From: an uncultured bacterium
Lineage (GTDB): Bacteria > Eisenbacteria > RBG-16-71-46
NCBI GenBank assembly: GCA_964434945.1
Contig: CAYSWZ010000073.1
Coordinates: 13,938 to 77,937 of the forward strand
DNA length: 64,000 nt
Direction: 5' to 3'
Positions 5,521 to 64,000 of this stretch are shown in pieces. Position 1 is the first letter of the stretch, and every line of letters starts with the position of its first letter. The notes under the pieces were generated by a model. The model saw only the letters and a program-made list of their open reading frames with translations. It ran no database searches and had not been told where the DNA came from. The translations under genes were made by a program, and so were the position numbers.

Positions 5521-5680
5521 CGCGCCGGCGGGGTGCGGGGCATGCTGAATACGGGCAACGCTCGGTCCGGCCATCCATGGCCGGCCCTCCCTGACGCGCG
5601 TTTAACGGCCTCCGCCATTCCATAGCTCCGGCCTACGCGCGACTGCCCGCATTCAGCACGCCCCGCACCCCACCGGCGCG
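5521..5680 (+). repeat. composite palindromic intergenic element, copy A (36-nt inverted arms plus 88-nt conserved core)
   Basis: Arms 5521-5556 and 5645-5680 pair at 33/36 positions. Core 5557-5644 (AACGCTCGGTCCGG...ACGCGCGACT) recurs at 37283-37368 and, reverse-complemented, at 48587-48674. Confidence 0.85.
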
Positions 5681-7056: not shown

Positions 7057-7068
7057 GTTCGACACGGG

Positions 7069-7092
7069 GGCCGGGGCCCGCGGGCCCCGGCC
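7069..7092 (+). terminator. GC-rich hairpin downstream of the Spy-like gene
   Basis: GGCCGGGGCCC-GC-GGGCCCCGGCC palindrome 13 nt after the stop at 7056. It is followed only by TTCGG, so there is no clear U-tract and the terminator role is tentative. Confidence 0.4.
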
Positions 7093-7250
7093 TTCGGCCG
7101 GTCGCGACCTCGCCGCTCGAAGCGCGGCGACATTTCTCCCGCCGGGCATTGCCCGTCCCCGTTCAGCGCTGTAGGTTCCAGCGGATTCACGCGTCCGCAG
7201 CAGTCCGGGAGACCCGGTAGCCCACCATTCGCCGATAGGGACATCTTCGC

Positions 7251-15628: not shown

Positions 15629-15678
15629 CGGCGGCTCGCGACGGGGCGCGGGCCGTGCGGCCCGCGCCGGAAATCCCG

Positions 15679-16346: not shown

Positions 16347-16817
16347 CTACCGATCCATGGACTGCGGCGGGGAACCCGACCCCCCGCCCACGGGGCGGAT
16401 CAGGAACGAACTCAGGATCAGCGCCACGCCGACCGCGGCGGGGATCAGGCCGACGGTCCAGACCCTGCCGCCGTCGTTCCCGTCCGCGACCTCGTGCAGG
16501 AAGATCGACAGGGCGACTCCCACGAACAGCGTCACGATGCCGCCGATCAGGATGCCCTGGCGGCGGTGCTCCGCGACCACGACCGGATCGCCGAACATGC
16601 GGTTGTCGTCGAAGATGATCGGGCGCTGCAGGCTCGCGATCTTGTCGGGATCGAGCCCGCGCTCGATGGCCGCGATGCGCTCGCGCTGGATCATCTCGAA
16701 CGCGCGCTGGCGCTGCATCGTGCGCACGATCCCGGCGGTGATCCCGCCGACGATGGCGACGATGGGGATGCTGAGCGCCATCAGCGGGATCAGCGAATCG
16801 GTGTCGAAATCGAACAT
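16347..16817 (-). CDS. small integral membrane protein (3 predicted TM helices)
   Basis: 156 aa. Hydrophobic segments LIPLMALSIPIVAIVGGITAGIV, ILIGGIVTLFVGVALSIFL and VGLIPAAVGVALILSSFLI. Divergent from the ECF sigma gene. Confidence 0.65.
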   Translation of the reverse strand: MFDFDTDSLIPLMALSIPIVAIVGGITAGIVRTMQRQRAFEMIQRERIAAIERGLDPDKIASLQRPIIFDDNRMFGDPVVVAEHRRQGILIGGIVTLFVGVALSIFLHEVADGNDGGRVWTVGLIPAAVGVALILSSFLIRPVGGGSGSPPQSMDR

Positions 16818-17033
16818 GGCGGGCCTCCGCGGCGGCTGGGGTGGTGGACGTTGTCTCGAACGCCCATTGTGACCGGGAGAGGCCCGGATCGGGTTTCAGG
16901 GGTCGTGCTCGGAAGATTGCGGATGAGCCCGTTTTCGAGGGGTTGTACGCCAACAGGTCTATGTACCACAATCACTTATGTGGGCAGTCTCCCCCACCAG
17001 CAATCTTCCGCGCACAACCCTTAGGCTGCCGGG

Positions 17034-17657
17034 ATGCAACCCGAGCCGCCCCTGGACCCGTCCAAGCGAGCGATGGCCCCGACGCCCGCGCTCCATCCCG
17101 AGGCCGCGAGGATGGCGGACGAGCGCCGGCTCATCGCAGGGGCGCAGTCGGGCGACACGGCCGCGTTCCGTGTGCTGGTCGAACGGCATCAGGCGCGCGC
17201 GGTCGCGCTCGCGCTGCGCATCGTCCGCTCGGCGCCGGACGCGGAGGAAGTCGCGCAGGATGCGTTCGTGCGGGTTTGGACGGCGCTCCCCGGCTTTCGT
17301 GGAGAGTCGAGTTTCGCGACGTGGCTGTACCGGATCGTGGCGCGGCGCGCGTTCGACCGGGTGGACGTGCTGAAGCACCGGCGTGCGCGCGAGCGGGCGG
17401 AGGAGAAGCTGCCCGAGCCCGTCGCACCCGCGCCGGCGGACGACGACACGTTACGGGCGGCGCTGCTGCAACGGCTGGTGGCGGACCTCTCACCCGCGCA
17501 ACGGTCGGTGGTGACGATGTTCTACTACGAGGGACGGTCGGTGGAGCAGGTCTCGGCGATCCTCAACATGCCGGAGAACACGGTGAAGACGCACCTGCTG
17601 CGCGCGCGTGCCGCGCTGCGCACGGCGTGGACACACGAGCTGGGAGAAGAAGCGTGA
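17034..17657 (+). CDS. ECF-type RNA polymerase sigma-70 family factor
   Basis: Region 2 FRVLVERHQARAVALALRIVRSAPDAEEVAQDAFVRVW...ATWLYRIVARRAFD and region 4 SPAQRSVVTMFYYEGRSVEQVSAILNMPENTVKTHLLRARAAL. Possible later start at 17112. Confidence 0.9.
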   Translation: MQPEPPLDPSKRAMAPTPALHPEAARMADERRLIAGAQSGDTAAFRVLVERHQARAVALALRIVRSAPDAEEVAQDAFVRVWTALPGFRGESSFATWLYRIVARRAFDRVDVLKHRRARERAEEKLPEPVAPAPADDDTLRAALLQRLVADLSPAQRSVVTMFYYEGRSVEQVSAILNMPENTVKTHLLRARAALRTAWTHELGEEA

Positions 17658-22445: not shown

Positions 22446-25187
22446 TCACTTGACGATCGCGACGCGTTGCCGCAAGTCGGCTCCCGGGCCCTGCAGGCGG
22501 GCGAAGTAAAGCCCGGCTGCGAGCCCCGTGGCGTCCAGCCGGGCCGTGTGACGCCCGGCCTCGCACACGCCTTCGAACACCGTGCTCACCACGCGCCCCT
22601 GCACGTCGAGCAGCGTGAGCCGCATCGGGGAGCGCTTCGGCACCGCATAGGTCAGCGTCGCGCGGCCGTGCACCGGGTTGGGCGCCATCGGCCCCAGACT
22701 GAACGCGGTGCCGGAACCTGGCGGATCCACCGCCAGCGTGCCGTCCCCGATCGTGAACCCGGCGTCGCTGAGGTCGCTGCCGATGCTGCCCGTGTAGTCC
22801 CGGGCGTCCACGCGGAGGTAGCACGTGCCGGATGAAGCAGGAGCGGAGACGGTCCAGTCGTACACGCCCGTGTTGGGTGCTCCGGCGGCGAGCAACTCCC
22901 AAGGTCCCGTGGCGCCGTTGCGCGAGAGGTAGACGTCAACCGACTGTACTCCTGGTACCGGCGCGCTGCTGCTCCACGACAGGTGGCACGTTGTGCCAAT
23001 GACGATTCCCTCGCCGCCGTTGGGTGAGAGCACGTTGACCGCAGGGGGCGATCCGCCAGCCGGCAGGATGCGGGCGACACCTCGTACGGGTTGTCCGCCG
23101 ATGCTGCTGAAGAACCCGCCGGCGTACACCGTGTCTTCCGACGCAACCAGCGCCCAGCTCCCGTGGTTCGCACCGGGGTTCCATGCGGTCGCCAACCCGT
23201 TCGTCGCATCCAGTGCCGCGATGGCGTTCCGCGCCTGCCCGCCAATGCTCACGAACAATCCGCCCGCGTACACCGTGCCTCCGGACGCCGCCAGCGACCA
23301 GACGTCGGAGGCCGCGTTCGGGTCCCATGCCGTCGCCAAGCCGCTCGTCGTATCCAATGCCGCGATGTGGTTCCGCGTCTGCCCACCGATGCTCGTGAAC
23401 CTCCCGCCCGCGTACACCGTGCCCCGCGACACCGCCAGAGCACTGACATAGTTGTCCGCGTGCGGGTCCCAGGCTGTCGCCAGCCCGCTCGTCGTATCCA
23501 ATGCCGCGATGTGGTTCCGCGCTTGCCCACCGATGCTCGCAAACCCCCCGCCCGCGTACACCGTGCCCCCGCACACCGCCAGCGCAGACACGTTACCGTC
23601 CGCTCCAGGGTTCCATGCGGTCGCCAGCCCGCTCGTCACACCCAGCGCCGCGATGCGGAGCCGCGCTTGCCCACCGATGCTCGTGAACCCCCCGCCCGCG
23701 TATACCGTGCCCCCGGACACCGCCAGCGCCGTGACAGTGTTGCTTGCCCCCGGGTTCCAGATCGTCGCCAGCCCACTTGCCGGGTCCAGTGCCGCGATGT
23801 TGTTGCGCGTTTGCCCGCCGATGCTGACGAACAATCCGCCCGCGTACACCGCGCCTCCGGACGCCGCCAGCGCATAGACGCCTCCGCTGACGCCTCCGTC
23901 CGCGCCCGGGTTCCATGCGGTTGGCTGCCCGGTCGTCACATCCAGTGCGGCGAGGTTCCCCCGCTCCCGCGCGCCCAGGATGTTGAAAGACCCGCCCACA
24001 CAGACGACACCTCCCGAGACCGCCAGCGCGGAAACGTTGTCGTTCGCGCCGGGAGGGTCCCAAGCCGTCGCCAGGCCGCTCGCCGAATCGATAGCCGCGA
24101 AATTGTCTCGCGCCTGTCCGCCGATGCTCGTGAACTGTCCGCCCGCGTACACCGTGCCCCCGGATACCGCCACTGCGTAGACGGCTCCAATCGTCGGGAT
24201 CGGAGGGCCCGGGTTCCAATTCGTCGCCAGCCCGGTCGTCGCATCCAGTGCGGCGATGCAGCTCCGCGGCTGCCCGCCGATGCTGGAGAAGTGTCCACCC
24301 GCATACAGCGTGCCTCCCGAGACCGCGAGAGCCATGACCTGTCCGTCCGCGCCCCAGTTCGATGTGCTCCCCAGCGCCAGCCCGCTCGTCGCGTCCACCG
24401 CCGCGATGTAGAGCCGCGGCTGCCCGCCGATGTCATGGAAGCTCCCACCCACGTACACGGTGCTGCCCGAGACCGCCAACGCCTGGACAAAGTTGCCCGC
24501 GGTCGGAGCGGGGTTCCATGCGGTCACCAGCCCTGTCGTCGCATCCACTGCCGCGAGATTGCTGCGCGCCTGCCCGCCGACAGTCTGGAAGGCCCCGCCC
24601 GCGTACACAGTGCCCCCGGAGACGGCCAGCGCCATGACCCAGCCGTTCACGCCCGGGTTCCACGCCGTCGCCAGCCCGCTCGTCGTATCCAGTGCCGCGA
24701 GGTTCTGTCGCGCCTGCCCACCGATGCTCGAGAAGCTCCCCGCTGCGTAAACCGTCGGGCCGCTCACAACGAGGGCGGACACGAGGTTGTTCACCCCCGG
24801 GTTCCAGCCGTCCAGCGTGCCATCCGCGCGAATGTGCGCCAGGTTGTTGCGCGCCACCCCCGCCACGCTCGTGAACCTTCCCGCGACGTACCAGCCGCCC
24901 GAACCATCCGGGGCCACGGCCGTCACGGTACCGTTGACCCGCGGCCATGCCGGGGCCGGGGCGCCGGTCGCAGCATCGAGCGTGGCGAACCCACCCGTGA
25001 TCGCGCCGACATGGGAGAAAGTGCCCCCGATGTACAGCGTGTTGCCTGCAAGGGCCATGGCGTACACGTCCCCATCCGTGACCCACAGGTTTGGGTCCGC
25101 GACCTGCGCGAATCCGCGGCCCGGTGAGAGTGACGTGACGACGAGCAGCGTTGCGATAAGGGCAGGGCGACGAAGCCAGGGCATCAT
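22446..25187 (-). CDS. secreted ~14-blade beta-propeller repeat protein with Ig-like domain and T9SS/FlgD-like C-terminal sorting domain
   Basis: Start MMPWLRRPALIATLLVVTSLSPGRGFA, preceded by GGGAGG. About 14 repeats of ~47 aa (TVYAGGxFxSIGGQxRNxIAALDxxSGLATAWNPxA). C-terminus PNPVHGRATLTYAVPKRSPMRLTLLDVQGRVV...AGLYFARLQ...VAIVK. The 66 extra N-terminal residues of the track ORF are rejected. Confidence 0.85.
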   Translation of the reverse strand: MMPWLRRPALIATLLVVTSLSPGRGFAQVADPNLWVTDGDVYAMALAGNTLYIGGTFSHVGAITGGFATLDAATGAPAPAWPRVNGTVTAVAPDGSGGWYVAGRFTSVAGVARNNLAHIRADGTLDGWNPGVNNLVSALVVSGPTVYAAGSFSSIGGQARQNLAALDTTSGLATAWNPGVNGWVMALAVSGGTVYAGGAFQTVGGQARSNLAAVDATTGLVTAWNPAPTAGNFVQALAVSGSTVYVGGSFHDIGGQPRLYIAAVDATSGLALGSTSNWGADGQVMALAVSGGTLYAGGHFSSIGGQPRSCIAALDATTGLATNWNPGPPIPTIGAVYAVAVSGGTVYAGGQFTSIGGQARDNFAAIDSASGLATAWDPPGANDNVSALAVSGGVVCVGGSFNILGARERGNLAALDVTTGQPTAWNPGADGGVSGGVYALAASGGAVYAGGLFVSIGGQTRNNIAALDPASGLATIWNPGASNTVTALAVSGGTVYAGGGFTSIGGQARLRIAALGVTSGLATAWNPGADGNVSALAVCGGTVYAGGGFASIGGQARNHIAALDTTSGLATAWDPHADNYVSALAVSRGTVYAGGRFTSIGGQTRNHIAALDTTSGLATAWDPNAASDVWSLAASGGTVYAGGLFVSIGGQARNAIAALDATNGLATAWNPGANHGSWALVASEDTVYAGGFFSSIGGQPVRGVARILPAGGSPPAVNVLSPNGGEGIVIGTTCHLSWSSSAPVPGVQSVDVYLSRNGATGPWELLAAGAPNTGVYDWTVSAPASSGTCYLRVDARDYTGSIGSDLSDAGFTIGDGTLAVDPPGSGTAFSLGPMAPNPVHGRATLTYAVPKRSPMRLTLLDVQGRVVSTVFEGVCEAGRHTARLDATGLAAGLYFARLQGPGADLRQRVAIVK
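23043..25100 (-). repeat. tandem 141-bp coding repeats (beta-propeller blades)
   Basis: GTCGTATCCAATGCCGCGATGTGGTTCCGCG recurs at 23347 and 23488 (141-bp period). Similar units run through the whole interval and create open frames in all six phases of the track. Confidence 0.8.
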
Positions 25188-30068: not shown

Positions 30069-30111
30069 CCGGCGTGGGAGCGGGCGCGGGCCGCGCGCCC
30101 GCTCCCACCGC

Positions 30112-31128
30112 TCACTTGTAGAGGTAGTAGAGCGTGATCCGCACCGCGACGTCCGCCTTCCGGTCGGCGAGCGCCGAGGACTTGGCCAGGTAATTGCGCA
30201 CCAGCACGTTGGGCATGAGGTGCACGTTCGGGCGGGGGGACGCGTCGAGCGCCGCGATCCAGTACATCTCGCGGTAGCCGGTGCTCGCCTGCCGGGTGTC
30301 GGGGTCGAACCAGTCCACGCGGCCGACCGCGCTCCAATGATCGGTCAGCCGGCCGTGTCCGAACAGGCTCGTGCCCGCGGGGACCATGTCCGCTCCGGCG
30401 GGGCCGGCAGCCGCGTTCACGCGGCGGAACGCCTGCAGGCCGGCCGCGTCGGGACCCTTCTGCCAGCCGAGGAACGCCTGCGTGGTCCACTTGTCGTGCG
30501 GACCCGTCTCGCCCTCGAAGTCGCCCATGCCCTCGAACACGAAGTTCCCGAACTGGATCGGCACCGAGAGCATGAGCTTCTTGGACGCGTTGTTCTCCGG
30601 CTTCTGGCCGCTGCCATTCGCGAACATGAGGTGCCAGCCGAGGGGGCGCCCGGGAGCGGGGGCCCGCTGCAGCGCCACGCCGAGATCGGTCGCGGTGCCG
30701 AAGCCCTCGAAGTCGAGCAGCGTCTTCTCGAGCGAGCGATATCCCCAGTAGCTCTCGACCAGCGCCCACGTAGGCGTGAGGGACATCCCCATGGTGAGGT
30801 TGCCGAGGGGGCCGAACCGGCTCCAGCGCAGCCACACCTGCTTCAGGAACGCCGCGGACTTGCCCTTCGAGGTCAACTCGTTGTCGTCGGCCTCGAACTG
30901 GACCCGCACCGCGAACACCGTGTCGAGGTCCTGGTCGAGCGTGAACTGCACACGGCGGAACCGGAACGACGACGTGTCGGCGGGCACCGAGTAACCATGG
31001 ATCGCATCCTGGAAATCGGCGTACACCATTCCCGAGAGTCTTGCCTGGCCATGCGCGGGCGCGGCGAGTGCTGCCGCGAGCAGCACGGCGCACGCCACCA
31101 CCCGGGACGATCTGGCGCTGCGGAACAT
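30112..31128 (-). CDS. outer-membrane porin (phosphate-selective porin O/P-like)
   Basis: Signal peptide MFRSARSSRVVACAVLLAAALAAPAHG and a beta-strand-rich body ending RITLYYLYK. Family assignment is from overall pattern only. Confidence 0.7.
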   Translation of the reverse strand: MFRSARSSRVVACAVLLAAALAAPAHGQARLSGMVYADFQDAIHGYSVPADTSSFRFRRVQFTLDQDLDTVFAVRVQFEADDNELTSKGKSAAFLKQVWLRWSRFGPLGNLTMGMSLTPTWALVESYWGYRSLEKTLLDFEGFGTATDLGVALQRAPAPGRPLGWHLMFANGSGQKPENNASKKLMLSVPIQFGNFVFEGMGDFEGETGPHDKWTTQAFLGWQKGPDAAGLQAFRRVNAAAGPAGADMVPAGTSLFGHGRLTDHWSAVGRVDWFDPDTRQASTGYREMYWIAALDASPRPNVHLMPNVLVRNYLAKSSALADRKADVAVRITLYYLYK

Positions 31129-31265
31129 CGCGGACCTCCTCCATCAACGAGTCGCGGACGTCCTGCCACGGCGTCGCGCGAGCCGGTTCGCTTCGCGTAC
31201 CTCCGGCACCCGACACCATCGTGTGCCGCTGTCCGCGAGCATCGGCGAGCCGGCGCGCGGTCCCT

Positions 31266-31279: not shown

Positions 31280-31456
31280 GCCGGGTGTCGAACACGCCTC
31301 GCCCCATCGACCCTCCGATGCGCAGGGGGATTCCGCTGCGCGACGCTCGCGGCGTGGCGGCGCGACGGCTCCCGGGATTGCGTCGTCCCCCGCCGCGTGT
31401 TACTGGTGGCGCAGGCCCCGAAAGGGCTCCCCGCGCAACCAACGAAAGGACTCGCC

Positions 31457-31939
31457 ATGCTGCGTCGCATACTCTTCGCACTCGCGCTGCTCGCGTCGCT
31501 CCCCGCGGCCGCATCCGCAGGGCCGTTCTCGGCGTGGGGCCCGCAGATCGGCTTCAGCTCCGGTCCGGACCAGATCGTGGTCGGCGGACACCTGCTGGTC
31601 CGGGATGTCGCCCCGCAGCTGGATCTCGTGCCGAGCCTCGATCTCGGCTTCGGCGACAGCCAGACGCTGGTGTCGATCAACGGCGATTTCCGCTATCGAA
31701 TCCAGGTCAAGTCCCAGTGGGTGCCCTACGTGGGTGCCGGACTCGCCGTTCACTTCTTCTCGTTCGACAACCCGGGTCCCGGCGTGGACAACAGCGAGAC
31801 GAAGGCGGGCGGGCAGATCATCGCCGGCGCGCAGGTCCCGACGAAGAGCAAGAACCTGTTCTTCGCGGAGTTGAAGCTCGGCCTCGGTGACTCGCCGGAT
31901 TTCAAGGCCATGGCGGGTTGGAGCTTCGGGCTCAAGTAG
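31457..31939 (+). CDS. small outer-membrane beta-barrel protein, paralog 1
   Basis: MLRRILFALALLASLPAAASA signal. 160 aa. ~50% identical by eye to the next gene. Ends FKAMAGWSFGLK. Confidence 0.7.
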   Translation: MLRRILFALALLASLPAAASAGPFSAWGPQIGFSSGPDQIVVGGHLLVRDVAPQLDLVPSLDLGFGDSQTLVSINGDFRYRIQVKSQWVPYVGAGLAVHFFSFDNPGPGVDNSETKAGGQIIAGAQVPTKSKNLFFAELKLGLGDSPDFKAMAGWSFGLK

Positions 31940-32251
31940 GGGCGTCACTCTCCATCTGCACTCGCCCGTGCACGATCGGGTGATGTGCGCGCACACCCGC
32001 GTCAGGCTTCGGCAAAAAGATGCGCGTGGTTGCGCAAGTGTTGTGGTGATGGCACTTCGAAAAGTGCACGCCACTTGCTCCAGAGGCCCGAAAATCTTGA
32101 AGGGGCTCGCGGGGCGCGCCGATACTCGGCCTGACGGCTGGTGTTCCGGGAGAGGCCAGCCGGCGGTGCCGCAGGCGCCGAGGGTCCGGGCCTTGCTCCA
32201 CCGACCCCGTCCCAGATCACTCCCCCGCGCAACACACGAGAGGACTCCGTC

Positions 32252-32734
32252 ATGCTGCGTCGCTCGCTCATCGCACTCGCGATTCTCGTGATGCTGCCCG
32301 CGGCCGCGTCCGCCGGCTCGTTCAGCTACTTCGGCCCCCAGCTGGGATTCAGCCAGGGGCCCGATCAGTTCGTCGTCGGAGGGCATCTGAAGTGGAATAC
32401 CGTCGCCCCGTCGCTGGACTTCGTGCCCGGCGTCGAGGCCGGGTTCGGTAGCAACTTCTCGCTGGTGTCGCTCAACGGCGACTTCCACTACAAGATCTCG
32501 TCCGGCACCCGCTGGCAGCCTTACGTCGGTGCCGGTGTCGGCATGCACTTCTCCTCGACCGACAACAGCTTCGGCAATACCAGCACCGGCGCCACCGCCA
32601 CCGGCGGGCACTTCATCATCGGCGCCGGGGTTCCCACGCGCGGAAGCGCCCGGTTCTTCACCGAGCTGAAGCTGGGCTTCGGCGATTCGCCGGACATGAA
32701 GATCATGGCGGGCTGGAACTACCGGGCCCGCTGA
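32252..32734 (+). CDS. small outer-membrane beta-barrel protein, paralog 2
   Basis: MLRRSLIALAILVMLPAAASA signal. Shares GPQxGFSxGPDQxVVGGHL, SLxSxNGDFxYxI, WxPYVGAGxxxHF and FxELKLGxGDSPDxKxMAGW with paralog 1. The 5' leader is also conserved. Confidence 0.7.
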   Translation: MLRRSLIALAILVMLPAAASAGSFSYFGPQLGFSQGPDQFVVGGHLKWNTVAPSLDFVPGVEAGFGSNFSLVSLNGDFHYKISSGTRWQPYVGAGVGMHFSSTDNSFGNTSTGATATGGHFIIGAGVPTRGSARFFTELKLGFGDSPDMKIMAGWNYRAR

Positions 32735-37251: not shown

Positions 37252-37399
37252 GGCGGGGGTGCGGGGGGTCTCGCTCGAGGCGAACGCTCGGTCCGGACCT
37301 CCTGTCCGGACCTTCGCTGACGCTCGCGACGGCCTCCGCCATTCCATGGCTGCGGCCTGCTCGCGACTCGCCTCGAGCGAGACCCCCCGCACCCCCGCC
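37252..37399 (+). repeat. composite palindromic intergenic element, copy C (31-nt perfect inverted arms plus 86-nt core)
   Basis: Arms 37252-37282 (GGCGGGGGTGCGGGGGGTCTCGCTCGAGGCG) and 37369-37399 are perfect reverse complements. Core 37283-37368 is homologous to 5557-5644. Confidence 0.85.
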
Positions 37400-37476
37400 T
37401 CACACTGTCGAAGCCCGGAGGCCGCAGCACCTGCGAGGCCCGGCCCACCCCCCCGGCGACGACTCACCACGATTGC

Positions 37477-39727: not shown

Positions 39728-41008
39728 TCAGAAGGCGTTCATGGGCATGAGGAACACGGGCCGGGCGCGGAACCAGGGATCCACGAGCGCGGCCGCGCCG
39801 CGCAGGTCCTCGATCATCCCGCGCTCGGCCGCCACCACGGGCCGGACCGCTCCCGCCGCCAGGATCGCGAGCGCCTCGGCGCTCGCGGCGAGCCGCGGCA
39901 ACTTGTCGCGGCTCGCCGCCTCCCGCGCCGTCTCCGCGCGCACGCTCAACCGGCCGTCGCGCGCGTGCACGCGCCAGGCGCGTTCGTTCGAGGGGATCAC
40001 CTCGTCGCGGACGTCGAGGATCAGCTCGCCGCGCGCGTGCGGATCCACCGGCAGCGATTCGAGCGCGCCCTTCACGTCCACGAGCCGGAGCATCGCACCG
40101 TAGCCGGCGTGACCGCTGCTGCGGATGACCCCCATCTTCATCTCGCCCCGCAGGTTCGCCGCGTCACCGAACTCCGCGGCCCAGGGCGCGTCGGGCGGCG
40201 TGGACATGACCAGCTCCACCGCCTGGTCGCGCAGCCCGTGCAGGTAGCCGGTGAGCCCGCGGTGCGCGTCGGGCGTGATCGCGACGAACTCGTTCACGGT
40301 CAGCACCAGCTTCCACGGCCCGTCTCCCGCATCCACCTGCACGTGGAGGTAGCCCTCGATCTGGCCGCGCCGGCGCTCGTACACGATCCACTCGCCTTCG
40401 TAGCCCCACAGCCGGCGCTCCCACCACTCGGGACGCCGTGCCAGCGCGAAGTGCCCGCGCTCGCGCGCGTGGCGGTCGTAGAGCTGCTGCACCAGCGGCC
40501 GGTCCGGCAGGCGGAGCCGGTGGACGCGACGCGATTCCTCCGATGAGGGCAGCAGCGCCGGCGGCACCGACAGCAGGATCGGGGTCTCGACGAGGCCCCA
40601 ACCGAAGCGCCGGTAGAAGTCCCCGCGAAATGCGTACAACATGCTGAGCGCGTCACCGCGCTGCCGCATCTCGCGCAGGGACGCCCGCACGAGCGCCTCA
40701 CCCACGCCCCGGCGGCGGTGCTCGGGGGACACGGCCACCGAGCCGATGCCGGTGACCGGCAGCTTCCCGCCGCGCACGTAGGCGTGCAGCGGGTAGAGCA
40801 CCAGTGCGGCTGCGATCTCCCCGTCGAGCTCGCCCACGCGCACGTCCCGGAGGCCGAAGCGCGGATGGTCGCCGAAGAAGTCGCGGCGCGCCTCGGCGCT
40901 CGACACGCGATAGGCGCGCAACGACAGGTCCACGAGCGTCTCGATGTCGGTGCGGCGCGCCGGGCGGTAGCGGAGTGCCGGCGGGCGCTGCGTCCGGGCG
41001 CCGCTCAC
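39728..41008 (-). CDS. Eis-like GNAT N-acetyltransferase (GNAT, central and SCP2-like domains)
   Basis: GTG start overlaps the upstream lipoprotein stop (GTGA). Acetyl-CoA motif VAVSPEHRRRGVGEALV...MLYAFRGDFYRRFGWG. 426-aa length and architecture typical of Eis. Confidence 0.8.
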   Translation of the reverse strand: MSGARTQRPPALRYRPARRTDIETLVDLSLRAYRVSSAEARRDFFGDHPRFGLRDVRVGELDGEIAAALVLYPLHAYVRGGKLPVTGIGSVAVSPEHRRRGVGEALVRASLREMRQRGDALSMLYAFRGDFYRRFGWGLVETPILLSVPPALLPSSEESRRVHRLRLPDRPLVQQLYDRHARERGHFALARRPEWWERRLWGYEGEWIVYERRRGQIEGYLHVQVDAGDGPWKLVLTVNEFVAITPDAHRGLTGYLHGLRDQAVELVMSTPPDAPWAAEFGDAANLRGEMKMGVIRSSGHAGYGAMLRLVDVKGALESLPVDPHARGELILDVRDEVIPSNERAWRVHARDGRLSVRAETAREAASRDKLPRLAASAEALAILAAGAVRPVVAAERGMIEDLRGAAALVDPWFRARPVFLMPMNAF

Positions 41009-44205: not shown

Positions 44206-44235
44206 CCGGGCGCCGGCGGGACCGGGGCGCGCGCC

Positions 44236-45279
44236 TCAGTCCCGCCGGCGACGGGCTCCGACGCGCGCGGCGAACACGACCGCGAACAACACCAGCGCGA
44301 GGATCCCGACCACCACCGGCGTCCAGCGGTGCGGCAGGCGCTCGAGCAGGATGGCCGCGCCGCCGAACAAGGCCGAGAGCGTCCACAGCACGGCGAGGAC
44401 GGCGCGCGGCGACAGCCCCGTGTCGAGCAGGCGATGGTGGATGTGCCCGGCGTCCCCCTGGAACACGTGCCGGCCGCGCGCGAGCCGGCGCACGAACGCC
44501 AGCACGCCATCCGCGATCGGCAGTCCGAGCGCCACCAGCGGCAGCAGCAGCGTGAGTGCCGCGGTGCCCTTGCGGTTCTCGAGCAGCGACAGCGCGGACA
44601 ACGTGAGGCCGAGGAACTGGCTGCCGGTGTCGCCCATGAACACGCGGGCGGGCGGGCGGTTCCACCACAGGAACCCGCCGCACGCGCCGAGGAGCAGCGC
44701 GGCCACGAACATGACGTAGAAGTCGCCGTGTCCGCGCGCGGTCACCCACAGTGCGCCGCACGCGATCGCCACCAGGCCCGCGGCCAGTCCGTCCAGGCCA
44801 TCGATCAGGTTGATGGCGTTGGTGAGCATGATCACCCACAGCACAGTGAGCGGCACGCTCCACGCGCCGGTCACGATCGCCTGGCCGAACGGGTTCGTGA
44901 GCAGCGGTACGCCGTAACCGAACATCACGAGCACGAGCGCGGCACACGCCTGCACGGCGAGCTTGCCCCACGGTCCCGCACCGCGCACGTCGTCGAACAC
45001 CCCCAGCGCGAGGATCGGCAGCGCGGCGAACGTGAGACCGAGGAGCGGGCGCGCCTCCAGCTCGCGCGCCGGTCCGGGCAGCAGGCGTGCGACCCATGCC
45101 ACCGACAGCACCGCGGCGGCGATCGCGAGCCCGCCGAAGCGGGGCGTGGGATCACGGTGGATGCGCCGCGGTCCGGGGTGGTCCACCGCCCCCACCCGCA
45201 CCGCCAGCGACCGGGCGACCGGCGTCAGCGCCAGGGCCACCGCGCCGGAGGTGAGTGCGAGCGTCAGCGAATAGGGCAT
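44236..45279 (-). CDS. polyprenyl-phosphate N-acetylhexosamine-1-phosphate transferase (GT4 / WecA-MraY family)
   Basis: About 10-11 TM segments. Motifs GVFDDVRG, NAINLIDGLDGLAAG and VFMGDTGSQFLG. Start ATG overlaps the GT2 stop. Confidence 0.9.
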   Translation of the reverse strand: MPYSLTLALTSGAVALALTPVARSLAVRVGAVDHPGPRRIHRDPTPRFGGLAIAAAVLSVAWVARLLPGPARELEARPLLGLTFAALPILALGVFDDVRGAGPWGKLAVQACAALVLVMFGYGVPLLTNPFGQAIVTGAWSVPLTVLWVIMLTNAINLIDGLDGLAAGLVAIACGALWVTARGHGDFYVMFVAALLLGACGGFLWWNRPPARVFMGDTGSQFLGLTLSALSLLENRKGTAALTLLLPLVALGLPIADGVLAFVRRLARGRHVFQGDAGHIHHRLLDTGLSPRAVLAVLWTLSALFGGAAILLERLPHRWTPVVVGILALVLFAVVFAARVGARRRRD

Positions 45280-46667: not shown

Positions 46668-47168
46668 TCACTTGTCCACATCGCCCCCCGGCTCCGGCCC
46701 CGCGAGCGGGCGCCCGAGCGCCGCTTCGAGCCACGCGGTCATCCGCGCGACGTGACTGCCGGGCCAGTACCAGCGCGCGCACGACGGACACCACTTGAAC
46801 GGCACTCCGAGGCGCGTGACGCGTCCCGGCACCTGTCCGCGCGCCTCGAACGCCGAGCGCGAGTGGAGCGCCACGTTGCACTCGGGGCAGCGGCTCCACG
46901 GCTCTCCCGCGGGGGTGTGCGCGTCCGCGACCGCGCGGATCGCGGCCGCAACGTCGTTCCTCGGCACGCGCACCACCGGCACGCCCGCGTGCCGGCGCGG
47001 GATTCGCGTGGACAGCGTCAACACGGTGCGCTCCTCGGCGGCGGCGGCGGCGAACAGCTCCTCGAGTCGCGCGCCGCGGTGCGTGACCACGTCGTAGCCC
47101 AGGAAACGCAGCCTCCGGGCGAGCAGTTCGAGCGAGGAATCCGTGGCGAATCGCGTGCGGGCCCGCAT
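46668..47168 (-). CDS. Mut7-C RNase-domain (PIN-like plus zinc-ribbon) protein
   Basis: FATDSSLELLARRLRFLGYDV at the N-terminus and zinc-ribbon cysteines RCPECN...KWCPSCARWYWPGSH. 166 aa from the internal Met at 47168. Confidence 0.7.
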   Translation of the reverse strand: MRARTRFATDSSLELLARRLRFLGYDVVTHRGARLEELFAAAAAEERTVLTLSTRIPRRHAGVPVVRVPRNDVAAAIRAVADAHTPAGEPWSRCPECNVALHSRSAFEARGQVPGRVTRLGVPFKWCPSCARWYWPGSHVARMTAWLEAALGRPLAGPEPGGDVDK

Positions 47169-47298
47169 GGCGCGGCACGCTAATGGCCGCTTCCGGCTCC
47201 GGCAAGCACCCTCGACGACGGCTGCAACCGCCTCGCCCGCACCGTGTTCCAAGCCCGACGTTGACGCGCCCTGTGCGCACGCGCACGCTCCGGCCCCT

Positions 47299-48513
47299 AT
47301 GGGAAGCCCCTCCGGGCGACCCGGGCCCGCCGACCTCGGGCCCGAGTTCGCCTCCGTCACGCTCGATCGGAGGCGGTTCCTGGTCGTGCTCGGTGGCGCC
47401 GCCGCCCTCCACGCCCTGGCGCCGTCGCTGGCCTGGGCACGCCATGCCAGCGGCACGTTGCCCTCGCTCCAGCCCTGGACGCTGCCCGCGGCGCTTCCCA
47501 CGAACCCGATCGAGGCCGGCCGCGCACTCGTCGGGGCCGCGGTGCTCGCGCCGAGTCACTGGAACGCGCAACCGTGGCGGTTCGAGGTGGACGCGGACGA
47601 ATTGCGCGTGCTCCTCGACCCGCAGCGCGTGCTGCCCCTGGACGATCCGGACCAGCGCTTCGCCCAGATGTCACTCGGTGCCGCGCTCGAGAACCTGCTC
47701 GTCGCCGCGCGCGCCTGGGGGCAGCAGCCGAGCGTCCGCTACCTGCCGTGGGGCACGGCGCCGCGCCCGGGAACGTCGCTCGTCGCCGCCGCGGTGTCGT
47801 GGACGCCCGCCGACCGCGCGCACGATCGGCTGCTGTTCTCGGCCCTCACCGAGCGACGCACGAATTCCCACCCCTACGACGGCCGTGCGATCACCATCCC
47901 GAGCCGTGGCCAGCTGCTGGCGCAGGTGGGCGAGGAGGTCCGCGTGCACTGGCTCGAGGACCGCGGCGACATCCGGGCGATCGGCGACCTGGCGCACGAT
48001 GCCGTGGAGCAGGTGATGTCCGACCGCCAGGCGCAGGCGGAGCGCGTGCTGTGGCTCCGCGATTCCGAAGGCGACGCGCGCTCGCACGGCGACGGCCTCA
48101 CCGCGGAACGGCTCGGGCTGGGCGGTCCGGCGCGCTGGTTCGCGGGACACTCGCTGAATCCCGAGAGTCACTTCTACGGCTGGGGCACTGGCAGCATGGC
48201 CAAGGACACGCGCGACCTGGTGCACAACTCGGGCGCGCTGGCGCTGCTCACGCTGCCGGCGCGCAGCGACGCGGGCTGGATCCTGGGCGGCCAGGCTTAC
48301 GAGCGCTTCGCGCTCCGCGCCTCGGCGCTGGGCATCGCCCAGCAACCGCTCGCGGCCCCGGTCGGCTCCGAACGTCACCGCCCGCTCCTCGCGCGGCGAT
48401 TCCACGCCGAGGGCGAGGAGCCGCTGCTGCTCGTCCGTCTCGGACACGCCAGGCAGCCGTCCCCCACCCCCCGCCGCGGCGTCGCCCTGGTGAGCACCTA
48501 CCGCACGTCGTAG
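47299..48513 (+). CDS. Acg-family FMN-binding nitroreductase-like protein with Tat signal
   Basis: DRRRFLVVLGGAAALHALAPSLAWA twin-arginine signal. LAPSHWNAQPWRF motif typical of tandem-nitroreductase Acg proteins. Start chosen at Met 47299. Confidence 0.75.
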   Translation: MGSPSGRPGPADLGPEFASVTLDRRRFLVVLGGAAALHALAPSLAWARHASGTLPSLQPWTLPAALPTNPIEAGRALVGAAVLAPSHWNAQPWRFEVDADELRVLLDPQRVLPLDDPDQRFAQMSLGAALENLLVAARAWGQQPSVRYLPWGTAPRPGTSLVAAAVSWTPADRAHDRLLFSALTERRTNSHPYDGRAITIPSRGQLLAQVGEEVRVHWLEDRGDIRAIGDLAHDAVEQVMSDRQAQAERVLWLRDSEGDARSHGDGLTAERLGLGGPARWFAGHSLNPESHFYGWGTGSMAKDTRDLVHNSGALALLTLPARSDAGWILGGQAYERFALRASALGIAQQPLAAPVGSERHRPLLARRFHAEGEEPLLLVRLGHARQPSPTPRRGVALVSTYRTS

Positions 48514-48555
48514 GGGGCGGCGGTGCGGACGTTGATCTCGCCACGTACTCCCCCA

Positions 48556-48705
48556 GGGTGGTCGCCGAGGGGTTCAAATCCTGGCGAGTCGCGCGCAGGC
48601 CGGAGGCAGGGACTGCCGGAGGCCGTCAAGCGCGCGTCAGGGAGGTCCGGGCAGGGATGCCCGGACCGAGCGTTCGCCATGATTTGAACCCCTCGGCGAC
48701 CACCC
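48556..48705 (-). repeat. composite palindromic intergenic element, copy B (31-nt inverted arms plus 88-nt core, inverted orientation)
   Basis: Perfect 25-bp inverted repeat 48556-48580 / 48681-48705, extending to 31 nt with one mismatch. Core 48587-48674, read on the minus strand, is 76/88 identical to 5557-5644. Confidence 0.85.
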
Positions 48706-48726
48706 GGCCTGGAATGCACGACGTGG

Positions 48727-50100
48727 TTACGACCCGCTCACCGTCATCTCTGCGATCAGCAGCGTCGGACATGCCACCGAGGAGCGCCATTCGAGATCGC
48801 TGCCGACAGCGGTGATGGAGTTCAGCATCTCGAGCGAGTTTCCCGCCACGGTCACGCCTTCGACCGGGAACGCCTTCTCGCCGTGCTCGATCCAGTAGCC
48901 CTGCGCCTGGAACGAGTAATCGCCGGTCACGCCGTTGAAGCCGTACGAGCCCTGGTCGTCGAAGTAGAAGCCGTTGTCCACCCGTTTCAGGATCGCCTCG
49001 GGCGAGTCCGCCCCCGGCTCCACGTACAGGTTGTGGAAGCCGATCCCGGGCGTGTTCGACCAGCCGCGCAGCCCGTTCGCCGTGGTCGCGCGCTGCGCGC
49101 GCCGGGCGTGGTAGCGGTCGTAGATGAACATCGCCAGCCGGCCGCGATCGAGCAGCACGTTGCGGCGCGTGCGCGCGCCCTCGCCGTCGTACGGCGAGCT
49201 GCCGATGCGCCGCGCGAGCGTGCCGTCGTCGACCAGCGTCACGAGCGGCGAGGCGATCGCCTCGCCCAGCTTGCCGGTGAGCCAGCTCGATTGCTTGAGC
49301 AGCGACTCGCCACTCCAGGCGTCCGCCATCTCCGACACCCAGCCGGCCGCGATGTCCGGGTGCATCACCACCGGCACGCGCGCGCTCGGCACGGTGCGCG
49401 CGCCGATCCTGTTCACCGCACGCTGCGCGGCGCGGCGCGCCATGGTCTCCGGCGACATGAGATCCGCCAGGTGACGCACGCTCATCCCTTCGGCGCCGGT
49501 CTGCTGGCGCCCGTCGCGGTCGTCGGCCAGCACCACCACCCACGCCGAAACACTGGTGCCCTCCCACGCGCGCGAAACGCCGAGCGTGTTCGCGACCGCG
49601 TAGGCGCCGCCCGCACTCGACACGCTGGCGCCGTCGCTGCGGGTCACGCGCGGGTCCGCCGCGAGCGCGAGGCGCTCGAGCTCGAGCGCCATCTCGATCT
49701 TCCGCTCCACCGGAAGCTCGAGCGCCGCGGGGTCGAAGAGCTGCTGGTCGCCGGCGAAGTCGCCGCCGGTCTCCTCCGGCCGCAGCGCACCGTTCGCCTC
49801 GTCGGGGGTGGCGAAGCGCGCCAGGGCCACGGCGCGGCGCGCGAGGTCGTCGAGCCCGGCGGGGGTGAGATCGGTGCCGGAGGCGAACCCGACCGCGCCT
49901 CCCACGATCGCGCGCACGCCCACGCCCATCGTGCCGCTCTGCTTGAGCGTTTCCACCGCGCCGCCGTGCACGCGGACGGTGAACGAGCGCGAGCTCTCCG
50001 CGCACGCATCGGCCACCTGTGCGCCGTGCGCGCGCGCGCGTTCCAGCACCTGCGCGCACAGCATTTCCACCTCCCCGGGGGGCGCGTGGCGTGCGTTCAT
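48727..50100 (-). CDS. pmbA: metalloprotease PmbA/TldE
   Basis: 457 aa from Met 50100, overlapping the tldD stop (ATGA). Typical PmbA_TldD stretches SGTMGVGVRAIVGGAVGFASG and FYFDDQGSYGFNGVTGDYSFQAQGYWIEHGE. The long track ORF 48727..51882 is a read-through artefact. Confidence 0.9.
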   Translation of the reverse strand: MNARHAPPGEVEMLCAQVLERARAHGAQVADACAESSRSFTVRVHGGAVETLKQSGTMGVGVRAIVGGAVGFASGTDLTPAGLDDLARRAVALARFATPDEANGALRPEETGGDFAGDQQLFDPAALELPVERKIEMALELERLALAADPRVTRSDGASVSSAGGAYAVANTLGVSRAWEGTSVSAWVVVLADDRDGRQQTGAEGMSVRHLADLMSPETMARRAAQRAVNRIGARTVPSARVPVVMHPDIAAGWVSEMADAWSGESLLKQSSWLTGKLGEAIASPLVTLVDDGTLARRIGSSPYDGEGARTRRNVLLDRGRLAMFIYDRYHARRAQRATTANGLRGWSNTPGIGFHNLYVEPGADSPEAILKRVDNGFYFDDQGSYGFNGVTGDYSFQAQGYWIEHGEKAFPVEGVTVAGNSLEMLNSITAVGSDLEWRSSVACPTLLIAEMTVSGS

Positions 50101-62288: not shown

Positions 62289-63571
62289 CGCGTGTGGCAC
62301 GAGTAGCAGGCGGCGCTGTCGTACCGGTAGCCACTCCTGCCGGAGTGTTCCGAGTCTGTGGAAGCCTGGTTGTCGTGAGGGTGGCAGCCGAGGCAGTTGA
62401 ACGCCGCGAAGTTCGTGGGCGAGTTGTGACAATCGCTGCACGCGTTCCAGCGCCCGGCATGACCCCCCGAGTAGATGCGGAAGTACTGCTGGTCGTGATT
62501 GAACGTGGCGCCGGTCCATGCGGTCGTGGTGTGGCAGCTGGCGCACGCCGACGCGGCAAACCCGGCGGCGGGGTGATTCGGGACCGCCGCGTTGTAGTCG
62601 GCGATGTGGCACGACTGGCACGCGGTGGGCTTCCCCTGGTAGACGCCGTCCGAGTGACAGCTCTGGCAGGTGGCGGTGACGTGCGCGCCGGTGAGCGGGA
62701 ACGCCGTCGCGTTGTGGTCGAAAGCCGCGCCGGTCCACGCGGTGGTGTTGTGGCAGCTGGCGCAGGCACTCGCGGCGAACCCGGACGAGGCGTGCGGCGG
62801 CTGGGCGGAGTTGTATTCGTTCATGTGGCACGACGCGCAGTCCGAGGGCGTGCCCTGGAAGCGACCACCCGGGTGGCAGCTCTCGCAGGTCGCCGTGCGG
62901 TGCGCGCCGGTCAGCGGGAACCCGGTCCGGGAGTGGTCGAAGCGGGCGGAGTTCCACGTGTTGGGGTTGTGGCAGGACTGGCACTCGGTGGGGAACCCGC
63001 CCGCGAGGTGGTCGGGCGCCTTCGCCGAGCGGTAGGCGTCCATGTGGCACGCGCTGCATTCCGCCTGCGTGCTCACGAACTGCAACTGGCCCTGCGCCGC
63101 GGGCGGGTGACAGCTCTCGCAGTCGAGCGCCGCGTGGCCCCCGGTGAGTGGGAACCGGGTGAGCTGGTGGGCGCGGAACATGGGCCCGCGGTCGACGAAG
63201 CTGCGCGCGGAGTGACAGCGTGAGCAGTCCGTTCCCATCTCGCCGCGGTGCGGATCCTGGTGGCACGATGCGCACAGCGTCTGCGATGCGGAGAAGTCGA
63301 GCGACTGGTGACAGCCGAGGCACGCCGCCGCGGCGTGCGCGCCGTCGAGCTTGAAGCCGTACTTCGCGTGATCGAACTTTCGGCTCACCTGGGCGGGCTT
63401 CCAGCCGGCCGCCCCGTGGCACAGGCTGCATTCCTCATGGAACCGGCCGTGCGGGTTCTCCACGCGCGGACGCGTCGCGGCCCGGGCGGCCCCGAGCACC
63501 AGCAGCGGCAGCACCACCAGCGCCGCGACGACGAGCCGCCGAAATCGATGGAGAGGGGTCGCGTGGGTCAC
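62285..63571 (-). CDS. multiheme c-type cytochrome (16 CXXCH motifs)
   Basis: 16 CXXCH sites counted (CSLCH, CLGCH, CASCH, CSRCH, CESCH, CSACH, CQSCH, CESCH, CASCH, CASCH, CQSCH, CQSCH, CASCH, CSDCH, CLGCH, CYSCH). Repeated ~73-aa three-heme modules (FDHxxTxFPLTGAHxTATCxSCH). Signal LVVAALVVLPLLVLGAARA. GTG 63571 is preceded by GAGGTGA; alternative ATG at 63613. Confidence 0.85.
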   Translation of the reverse strand: MTHATPLHRFRRLVVAALVVLPLLVLGAARAATRPRVENPHGRFHEECSLCHGAAGWKPAQVSRKFDHAKYGFKLDGAHAAAACLGCHQSLDFSASQTLCASCHQDPHRGEMGTDCSRCHSARSFVDRGPMFRAHQLTRFPLTGGHAALDCESCHPPAAQGQLQFVSTQAECSACHMDAYRSAKAPDHLAGGFPTECQSCHNPNTWNSARFDHSRTGFPLTGAHRTATCESCHPGGRFQGTPSDCASCHMNEYNSAQPPHASSGFAASACASCHNTTAWTGAAFDHNATAFPLTGAHVTATCQSCHSDGVYQGKPTACQSCHIADYNAAVPNHPAAGFAASACASCHTTTAWTGATFNHDQQYFRIYSGGHAGRWNACSDCHNSPTNFAAFNCLGCHPHDNQASTDSEHSGRSGYRYDSAACYSCHTR

Positions 63572-63575
63572 GGGA

Positions 63576-64000
63576 TCACCTCGGGGTTGGGATTTGCGCG
63601 CGGGAACGCCCATGGCGCTCCCGCTCGGGCGCGGGCGCGCCGGACGAATCCGGCGAGGCGGGCGCGTGACAGCTCTCGCACCGGCTGGGGGTCGGCCGGT
63701 AGGTCACCAGCGTCGCTCCGCCCGCGGAGCGCGTCTCTCGGTGGCAGCCGGCGCACGGCGTGTGCACGTGCGCGCCCTGGAGCCGGAACGCCGAGTCGCG
63801 ATCGTGATCGAACCTGCTCGCGGGCACGAACGAGCGGAAGTCGTGGCAGCTCTCGCACGCGCCCTTGTCCTTCCGCACCGCGAACTGGCCGCGGTGGACG
63901 TCCTCGTGGCAGTCCCTGCACGCGCGCGACTTGCTGTCGAAGCGGAGCGATCGGAGGTCCGTCGCGCCCTTGAGCGTGGACCCGCCCGGGGGCTTCTCCA
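63576..64000 (-). CDS. multiheme c-type cytochrome (5' end outside window)
   Basis: Frame is open to the window edge. Visible part has 4 CXXCH (CRDCH, CESCH, CAGCH, CESCH), including the paired pattern CRDCHEDVHRGQF. The stop lies 4 nt before the next cytochrome gene. Confidence 0.7.
   Translation of the reverse strand, partial: EKPPGGSTLKGATDLRSLRFDSKSRACRDCHEDVHRGQFAVRKDKGACESCHDFRSFVPASRFDHDRDSAFRLQGAHVHTPCAGCHRETRSAGGATLVTYRPTPSRCESCHAPASPDSSGAPAPERERHGRSRAQIPTPR

Follow-up and report, generated by a model that had tools for sequence, protein, structure and literature searches.

The 150-base palindromic element that separates a nitroreductase-like gene from pmbA (positions 48556 to 48705 of the 64-kb stretch of DNA analyzed here, which we refer to as the window) is an ordinary member of an old family of structured palindromic intergenic repeats of about 150 nt. 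This family is undescribed, absent from Rfam and lineage-specific to soil bacteria resembling Candidatus Eisenbacteria. The sequence comparisons reported below favor, with a probability that we put at roughly 55%, the view that its members represent an old structured module of gene 3' ends that would act through the fold of its GGA-rich strand, most simply as RNA, and that recombination between its arms would maintain and now and then flip.

The element, designated copy B, is bounded by two arms of 32 nt each (48556 to 48587 and 48674 to 48705) that are 97% complementary and lie 86 nt apart. The inverted repeat is perfect over 25 bp, as the first-pass annotation had already noticed, and its extension to 32 nt is interrupted solely by the C/T mismatch between C48581 and T48680, a mismatch that is retained in the ortholog present at locus L058 of our collection. 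All parts of copy B are described here on the plus strand, which is the GGA-rich one in this copy. The 5' arm provides one half of the 32-bp closing stem P1 and is composed of a G-rich outer part (GGGTGGTCGCCGAGGGG), a variable middle (TTCAAATCC) and the inner sequence TGGCGA. It is followed by an asymmetric conserved core of 86 nt (48588 to 48673) that forms a three-way junction with the hairpins P2 and P3. P2 (48590 to 48636) is a long irregular hairpin that was recovered by inverted-repeat search, by folding and through compensatory changes; its layout in copy B is CGCGCGC / GGCC / GGA / GGCAG, a GGA loop, and CUGCC / GGA / GGCC / GUCAA / GCGCGCG. The nearly invariant junction strand UCAGGGA (48637 to 48643; family form GUCAG(G/C)GA(G/A)GG) leads into P3 (48644 to 48667), which consists of GGUCCGGGCA, the loop GGGA and UGCCCGGACC and displays compensatory changes as well. 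A second nearly invariant junction strand, GAGCGU (48668 to 48673), then connects to the 3' arm, where T48680 stands opposite C48581.

The predicted fold of copy B has an energy of -117 kcal/mol (z = -11.8 in comparison with 200 shuffles), fold z-scores relative to shuffles lie between -9 and -14 whichever strand is considered, and the covariance model described below scores copy B with 148 bits (E about 1e-27). A chance origin of the structure is ruled out by these folding z-scores and covariance-model scores. On its left side, copy B is flanked by the nitroreductase-like gene (47143 to 48513, plus strand; a weak Pfam match), whose stop codon is located 42 nt before the element, and on its right side by pmbA (48727 to 50100, minus strand; TldD/PmbA family, Pfam E 4e-67), whose stop codon is 21 nt away. 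Close homologs of the PmbA protein and of an amidase encoded in the window are named Candidatus Eisenbacteria, and the window therefore very likely belongs to this group.

Two further copies are present in the window. Copy A (5521 to 5680, minus strand) has arms at 5521 to 5557 and 5644 to 5680 around a core at 5558 to 5643, and each of its three arm mismatches is a G.U pair on the GGA-rich, here the minus, strand. Copy C (37252 to 37399, minus strand) possesses perfect 32-nt arms (37252 to 37283 and 37368 to 37399) around a core at 37284 to 37367. The core of copy B (48587 to 48674) is 86% complementary, in inverted sense, to positions 5557 to 5644 of copy A over 88 nt, and it is inverted relative to copy C as well, at 71-75%. 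The GGA-rich strand is consequently the plus strand in copy B and the minus strand in copies A and C. The earlier proposal that a composite element of the same family, made of an inverted repeat and a homologous core, is present at the pmbA locus with its core on the opposite strand was thereby upheld. It was equally correct in placing all three copies into gaps between convergent genes. By our measurement, the arms begin 42 and 21 nt from the stop codons in copy B, 43 and 32 nt in copy A, which separates a gene for an S49 peptidase from one for a TPR protein, and 54 and 77 nt in copy C, whose neighbors are an unknown gene and the amidase gene. The full sequence box reported to be missing from the arms of copy B, GGGGTGCGGGG, indeed occurs in its exact form only in the arms of copies A and C.

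A filter-free covariance-model search of the 64-kb window revealed no copies besides A, B and C; the other matches were plain hairpins. Plain GC-rich hairpins with stems of 11-16 bp, loops of 4-5 nt and no U tract are found at 30074 to 30108, 15645 to 15667, 7064 to 7097, 44211 to 44250 and 39885 to 39919; the first of these immediately precedes the 3' end of a minus-strand ORF (30112 to 31143). Hairpins of this kind may be what this genome usually has at its 3' ends. A long imperfect hairpin of 125 nt and unusually low G+C content (0.56) occupies positions 16898 to 17022, between the divergent ORFs 16347 to 16895 (minus strand) and 17025 to 17657 (plus strand); it yields a weak covariance-model match only because of its long stem. 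Other repeats were noticed in the window as well. About eleven tandem units of 144-156 nt with 61-82% identity extend from 23032 to 24900 and have the look of a gene for a repeat-domain protein. Repeated units of about 200-230 nt are present at 62492 to 63789, and their reverse complement contains TGC CAG AGC TGT CAC, which translates to C-Q-S-C-H; judged by this CXXCH heme-binding motif, a multiheme cytochrome c is probably encoded here on the minus strand. A tandem gene duplication is evident from two neighboring paralogous gene starts (31453 to 31695 and 32248 to 32490) that are spaced by 795 nt and 75-80% identical.

About 35 copies of the repeat were gathered from Candidatus Eisenbacteria metagenome-assembled genomes (MAGs) and from soil metagenomes. 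When one genome per species was scanned with a core pattern, true matches were obtained in the Candidatus Eisenbacteria MAG DATDEX01 (five loci) and otherwise only in two unclassified MAGs, CAZADU01 and JANNWR01; the first genome pattern was too loose, and 23 of its 31 matches had to be discarded as chance hits within coding regions of Streptomyces and various other taxa. A scan of metagenomes yielded real copies at 14 additional loci from soil and rhizosphere. Real copies were encountered only in Candidatus Eisenbacteria or unclassified MAGs and in soil metagenomes. A covariance model built from 23 copies detected 31 copies with scores of at least 75 bits in the first set of loci and more at orthologous loci. 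Across the family, the unit measures 138-171 nt and the core 80-107 nt. Viral contigs and the records of phages and plasmids contained no match to the family, and a phage or plasmid origin was rejected on this ground. None of the 4227 Rfam models reached its gathering threshold anywhere in the window, the best sub-threshold match over positions 48450 to 48800 had an E-value of 0.49, and a Rfam search at E-values up to 10 was negative; nor did our literature search find a paper on such a repeat in Eisenbacteria.

All copies follow a common plan. A P1 stem of 29-37 bp (usually 32) closes a three-way junction in which P2, the junction strand GUCAG(G/C)GA(G/A)GG, a P3 hairpin of 9-10 bp and the junction strand GAGCGU(U) succeed each other. 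P1 pairing is kept across 28 copies with compensatory changes, and in the alignment of these copies (alignment A3), which was fitted to the structure, 97.8% of the cells are paired, with changes on both sides in 42 of 53 pairs. None of 500 shuffles and no slid register came close to these values. In P2, eight copies have G-C/C-G as the two central pairs of the basal stem and 18 have tandem G.A/A.G, and a 3x3 internal loop of the form GNA/GGA is replaced by CUC/GAG in one copy; this replacement, together with the alternation between G.A and G-C, indicates that the purine blocks of P2 are helical. P3 accommodates a hairpin insertion of 21 nt in the L058 copy. Coding of a peptide from the ATG in the P3 loop was considered and dismissed, as this ATG is not conserved among the copies.

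The abundance of GGA in loops and junctions invites the idea that the copies are small RNAs that serve as sponges for a CsrA/Rsm-type protein with affinity for GGA or base-pair with the anti-Shine-Dalgarno sequence. Of 28 copies, 27 indeed have GGA in the apical loop of P2 and 24 have it in the loop of P3; CGGAGGCC is nearly invariant as well, and CAGGGAGG is the sequence of the junction. Nevertheless, we consider this idea very improbable: the GGA triplets of the internal loops are non-canonical pairs of a helix, with the CUC/GAG exchange in one copy, no promoter or terminator of the element's own was found, and the spacing of copies about 20-50 nt from stop codons fits 3' regions of the flanking genes and not separate genes. 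A csrA gene was not seen in the 0.43 Mb of collected DNA, a negative result that is not informative.

While the structure is held in common, the sequences of the arms differ strongly from locus to locus. Their mean pairwise identity is 0.54 +/- 0.09, in comparison with 0.84 for the core, a value that is partly built in as the copies were fished with a pattern requiring the core. The arms are nevertheless well above the roughly 0.33 expected from their composition, and their conserved positions are scattered along the P1 stem; they are thus homologous along their whole length. This bears directly on the most conspicuous feature of copy B, the tRNA T-loop-like string GGTTCAAATCC in its 5' arm (48571 to 48581, plus strand). 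The string is present in the arm without a closing T-stem, as had been described: a T arm at this position would read AGGGG-TTCAAAT-CCTGG, in which just 3 of 5 T-stem pairs are possible. ARAGORN, run as the tRNA-finder check that had been recommended, predicted no tRNA or tmRNA gene in the window, as anticipated, and none at the orthologous loci. With ARAGORN and Rfam negative and no T-stem, copy B was rejected as a tRNA or tmRNA. The T-loop pattern GGTTCRANTCC has a chance expectation of 0.13 per window and was present in 13 of 100 shuffles.

An exact search with the PmbA sequence of the window matched no contig, and its locus was therefore compared with those of close relatives. At the position of GGTTCAAATCC, the pmbA orthologs carry GGCTTCGGATCC (L048 and L049; PmbA 92% identical to that of the window), GTATTCAGCTC (L054; 88%) or GGTTCAAATC (L058, L059 and L060; at least 90%), and it is GGTTCAAATC that the closest ortholog of the locus, L058, retains. 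Paralogous copies have related middles: the CCGAGGGG variant in the arm of copy B is common to L003 and L011, and the arm middle is similar to those of L007 (GGGGTTCTTCGAAAG) and L035 (GGGGGACTTCGAATGA). This spectrum of differing and related arm middles in orthologs and paralogs indicates that GGTTCAAATCC arose by ordinary drift of the arm; the string is a chance product of drift within a homologous arm.

These data weigh heavily on the view that a core was inserted into a pre-existing terminator hairpin and that the variable arm position captured foreign, tRNA-derived sequence, the latter having been the suggestion of the first-pass annotation. The presence of GGTTCAAATCC prompted it, and plain GC-rich hairpins are usual at 3' ends in the window. 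However, the homology of the arms over their full length in all copies contradicts capture of unrelated sequence, and the string changes among orthologs by point substitutions. Arms without a core, the configuration predicted for a pre-existing terminator, were not encountered at the pmbA locus: in the syntenic locus L053, where a PmbA gene (protein 83% identical) is convergent with a nitroreductase gene, the 105-nt spacer contains neither arms nor core. In lineages at 84-86% identity, a different gene lies downstream and no element is present. The orthologs thus largely refute this explanation, to which we assign a very small residual probability.

Outer arms without a core do occur at a site adjoining copy C. 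In L062 to L064, the ortholog of copy C is accompanied by a second, degenerate copy, and where L062 has the whole copy, L061 has a plain 13-bp hairpin of outer-arm sequence, CCGGGGGGTGAGC-CGG-GCTCACCCCCCGG, at about positions 2955 to 2985, some 50-80 nt past the amidase stop codon; this arrangement would agree with insertion of a core into a hairpin. We read the state of L061 and of the window as the outcome of a central deletion and decay of the partner copy, and positions 37400 to 37476 of the window, which separate copy C from the stop codon of the amidase gene, probably represent what decay has left of a second copy with the opposite orientation. Conceivably, the L061 hairpin is an empty hairpin target instead. 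Partial copies, in which an arm is joined to the initial or terminal bases of a core, also accompany full ones in L003 (within 45 nt upstream of position 4162) and L011 (within 45 nt downstream of position 2768), which suggests local rearrangement around the elements.

At the pmbA locus, the window and L058 share 31 of 32 positions in each arm (97%). The sole change is compensated, from GGGTGG/CCACCC in the window to GGGCGG/CCGCCC in L058. By comparison, the spacers outside the arms are 57% and 72% identical and the adjacent coding DNA 86-90%. As the arms are more conserved than both, they are under constraint at this locus. The core of L058 belongs to another P2 subtype, like that of copy A, and this difference at an orthologous locus implies that cores have been exchanged between copies. 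One-base indels that affect both arms together, along with compensated substitutions, are found between L037 and L040 and between copy C and L061. Such paired indels argue that, beyond selection on pairing, the arms are homogenized by a templated process. Overall, the arms can be described as locus-specific yet homologous across copies, and as evolving in concert.

The orientation of the unit has changed as well. The window, L058 and L054 have the element one way relative to pmbA, and L048 and L049 have the whole unit inverted; segments between inverted repeats can be mis-oriented during metagenome assembly, but the orientation in L048 and L049 comes from two separate samples. Likewise, in L033 and L038, whose flanks are 89% identical, the segment that carries the element is inverted. 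There, a nested duplicate of the outer distal arm (L038, 3107 to 3371; L033, 13 to 238) creates arms of 90 nt with 81% complementarity, and the inversion covers this larger unit, beyond the element's own arms. Several contigs with pmbA or amidase genes end inside the repeat, those of L048, L049, L054, L060, L063 and L064 at 70-116 nt into the element; the repeat hence breaks metagenome contigs, and its inverted repeats can confuse assemblers.

Inversion at two loci, along with near-perfect arms that evolve in concert, would suit a DNA inversion switch in which the 32-bp inverted repeats flip the asymmetric core, thereby choosing which of the two convergent genes bears the functional strand or activating a signal in the core. 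We give this little credence, since flips were seen only between lineages that are about 10% diverged and the orientation is kept in the other orthologous comparisons. The core contains no promoter-like signal, no recombinase was found among the neighboring genes tested, and free flipping would randomize the fixed polarity of doublets described below.

Not all paired positions of the structure are of the Watson-Crick type. On the GGA-rich strand, 47 of the exceptions are G.U pairs and 3 are A.C pairs (the latter corresponding to G.U on the other strand; p = 4e-11), and among mismatches, purine-purine combinations outnumber pyrimidine-pyrimidine ones by 22 to 4. The same strand trend was present in gapless arm comparisons that preceded model building, and again in five copies outside the seed alignment. 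Such a G.U asymmetry cannot arise from a process that treats duplex DNA symmetrically; only the GGA-rich strand is constrained to fold, and this points to a folded strand of either RNA or single-stranded DNA. Since G.T tolerance and tandem G.A pairs stabilize hairpins of single-stranded DNA too, the strand bias cannot separate RNA from single-stranded DNA.

Among the contexts resolved on both sides, 8 of 10 are convergent gaps, with gene calls in the collected loci made from codon-position GC only. Stop codons are found within about 20-50 nt of many copies. With respect to the nearest gene, both orientations of the repeat occur. At nine loci (eight of them independent), two copies form a doublet with 18-167 nt between them, and in all nine the GGA-rich strands point outward, in a (-)(+) arrangement that has a chance probability of about (1/4)^8. 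In three doublets, the arms of the mates rank first or second in mutual similarity (0.78, 0.75 and 0.66, in comparison with 0.54 +/- 0.09), which suggests a local inverted duplication.

An element that is, or formerly was, mobile and handled as single-stranded DNA could present such a picture. Its folded GGA-rich strand would be recognized by an HUH (Y1) enzyme, in the manner of REP/REPIN-RAYT systems or of IS200/IS605 ends, and the doublet would be the mobilizable unit. The strand-specific tolerance of G.T and G.A pairs, doublets of single polarity at eight independent loci, the extragenic position in convergent gaps, the presence or absence of copies at orthologous sites and the partial copies beside full ones all speak in its favor. 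Against it, no direct repeat indicative of a target-site duplication was found at the arm boundaries of 29 copies, their outer ends are ragged, and neither the ends nor the flanks hold a conserved motif. No two copies in one genome have arms in common, hence there is no sign of recent spread; the arms are more constrained than neighboring coding DNA; the gaps beside the copies contain no conspicuous transposase-like ORF; and viral, phage and plasmid sequences gave no match. We therefore regard such a mobile element as unlikely, although by no means negligible.

The reading that we prefer, a 3'-end module working through the fold of the GGA-rich strand, lends itself to the following model. The element would be transcribed within the 3' ends of the neighboring genes, a transcription that we infer, and its GGA-rich strand would adopt a hairpin fold of very high stability that includes a junction. 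As RNA, this fold could serve as a terminator that lacks a U tract or as a block to exonucleases. Its perfect duplex of three helical turns would be a likely substrate for RNase III or for a double-strand-RNA-binding protein, and its purine-rich core a likely platform for protein binding. Recombination or template switching between the arms would keep them complementary, leaving compensated substitutions and indels, and would now and then flip the unit as a whole, thereby passing the functional strand on to the other convergent gene. Ectopic conversion would swap cores between copies. Several observations count against this model. The orientation with respect to the nearest gene is mixed, and copy B has no U tract and no sigma-70-like promoter that we could find; in the intrinsic-terminator test, its hairpin was present with no T run after it. 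In doublets, moreover, the proximal copy always shows its CCUCC strand to incoming transcripts, unlike what a simple terminator on the GGA strand predicts. In its favor, the other 3'-end hairpins of the window are GC-rich and without U tracts too.

A bolder proposal is that of a strand-specific flip-flop module with a three-way junction, whose one-strand fold is read by an enzyme that nicks, copies or inverts the unit. It would account jointly for the one-strand tolerance of G.U and G.A pairs, for arms that evolve in concert down to indels on both sides, for units inverted between orthologs and for the fixed polarity of doublets. The family would then be a bacterial chromosomal counterpart of DNA transactions of the hairpin-telomere or ITR type; alternatively, it would be an invertible RNA module that switches between two convergent genes as its carrier. 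The probability of this proposal is low in our estimation.

Among known repeats, the REP/BIME/REPIN sequences of Proteobacteria come close in several respects. They too are extragenic GC-rich hairpins past stop codons, often between convergent genes, and they form inverted doublets with one constant polarity. REPs are likewise old, have been conserved at orthologous positions and have been proposed as stabilizers or terminators of mRNA 3' ends. Their strand-specific hairpins are bound as single-stranded DNA by RAYT, and the Eisenbacteria family shows a one-strand fold. However, REPs are simple imperfect palindromes of 20-40 nt with a conserved GTAG head, whereas the Eisenbacteria unit has 150 nt, a 32-bp stem and an asymmetric three-way-junction core of 86 nt, and it is the stem, not the core, that varies between loci. 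The extragenic post-stop location and the fixed-polarity doublets are thus found in our family, and the short palindrome with its conserved head is not. ERIC/IRU, YPAL, Correia (NEMIS) and MITE-like sequences are likewise intergenic palindromes, of 100-170 nt, that occur in both orientations and are transcribed together with neighboring genes into long RNA hairpins, possible RNase III substrates. These families possess conserved terminal inverted repeats, similarity over their full length and usually target-site duplications (TA for Correia), whereas in the Eisenbacteria family the arms are 54% and the core 84% identical and no duplication was seen. Neither of the MITE hallmarks, conserved terminal inverted repeats and target-site duplication, was accordingly recovered.

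Invertons of the fimS type also have an asymmetric segment between inverted repeats with both orientations at one locus, a property that the family displays between lineages only (at pmbA and in L033 vs. L038). Known invertons contain a promoter or a coding region, rely on a dedicated recombinase and occur in both orientations within a population. Integron attC sites are comparable in that structure is conserved over sequence, folding is strand-specific and gene 3' ends are occupied; they have conserved outer R boxes (RYYYAAC / GTTRRRY) and a variable center, whereas the Eisenbacteria family has a conserved center and lacks R boxes, the ends reading GGGTGG.../...CCACCC. An analogy of shape only is offered by the inverted terminal repeat of AAV, a GC-rich palindrome of 125-145 nt with a one-strand fold in which a long stem carries two small hairpins at a three-way junction and the inner part exists as flip and flop. 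This repeat, however, is the telomere of a eukaryotic virus that replicates by a rolling-hairpin mechanism with the Rep nickase, whereas the Eisenbacteria copies are chromosomal and dispersed. The family resembles REP/BIME and long palindromic repeats in location, doublets and presumed role. It is without their defining short size, conserved ends, target duplications and known transposase, and it joins a stem that differs from locus to locus to an asymmetric junction core that is conserved.

If our reading is correct, an uncultivated soil phylum harbors many copies of a 150-nt element missing from Rfam, with covariation support on par with that of accepted RNA motifs and, in addition, a clear strand signal. 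The family would then be a candidate 3'-end RNA module, or a protein-binding RNA, for high-GC bacteria without classical U-tract terminators. It also constitutes a natural data set on the upkeep of long perfect stems, in which compensated indels, homogenization of arms, inversion, central deletion and conversion of cores can all be followed.
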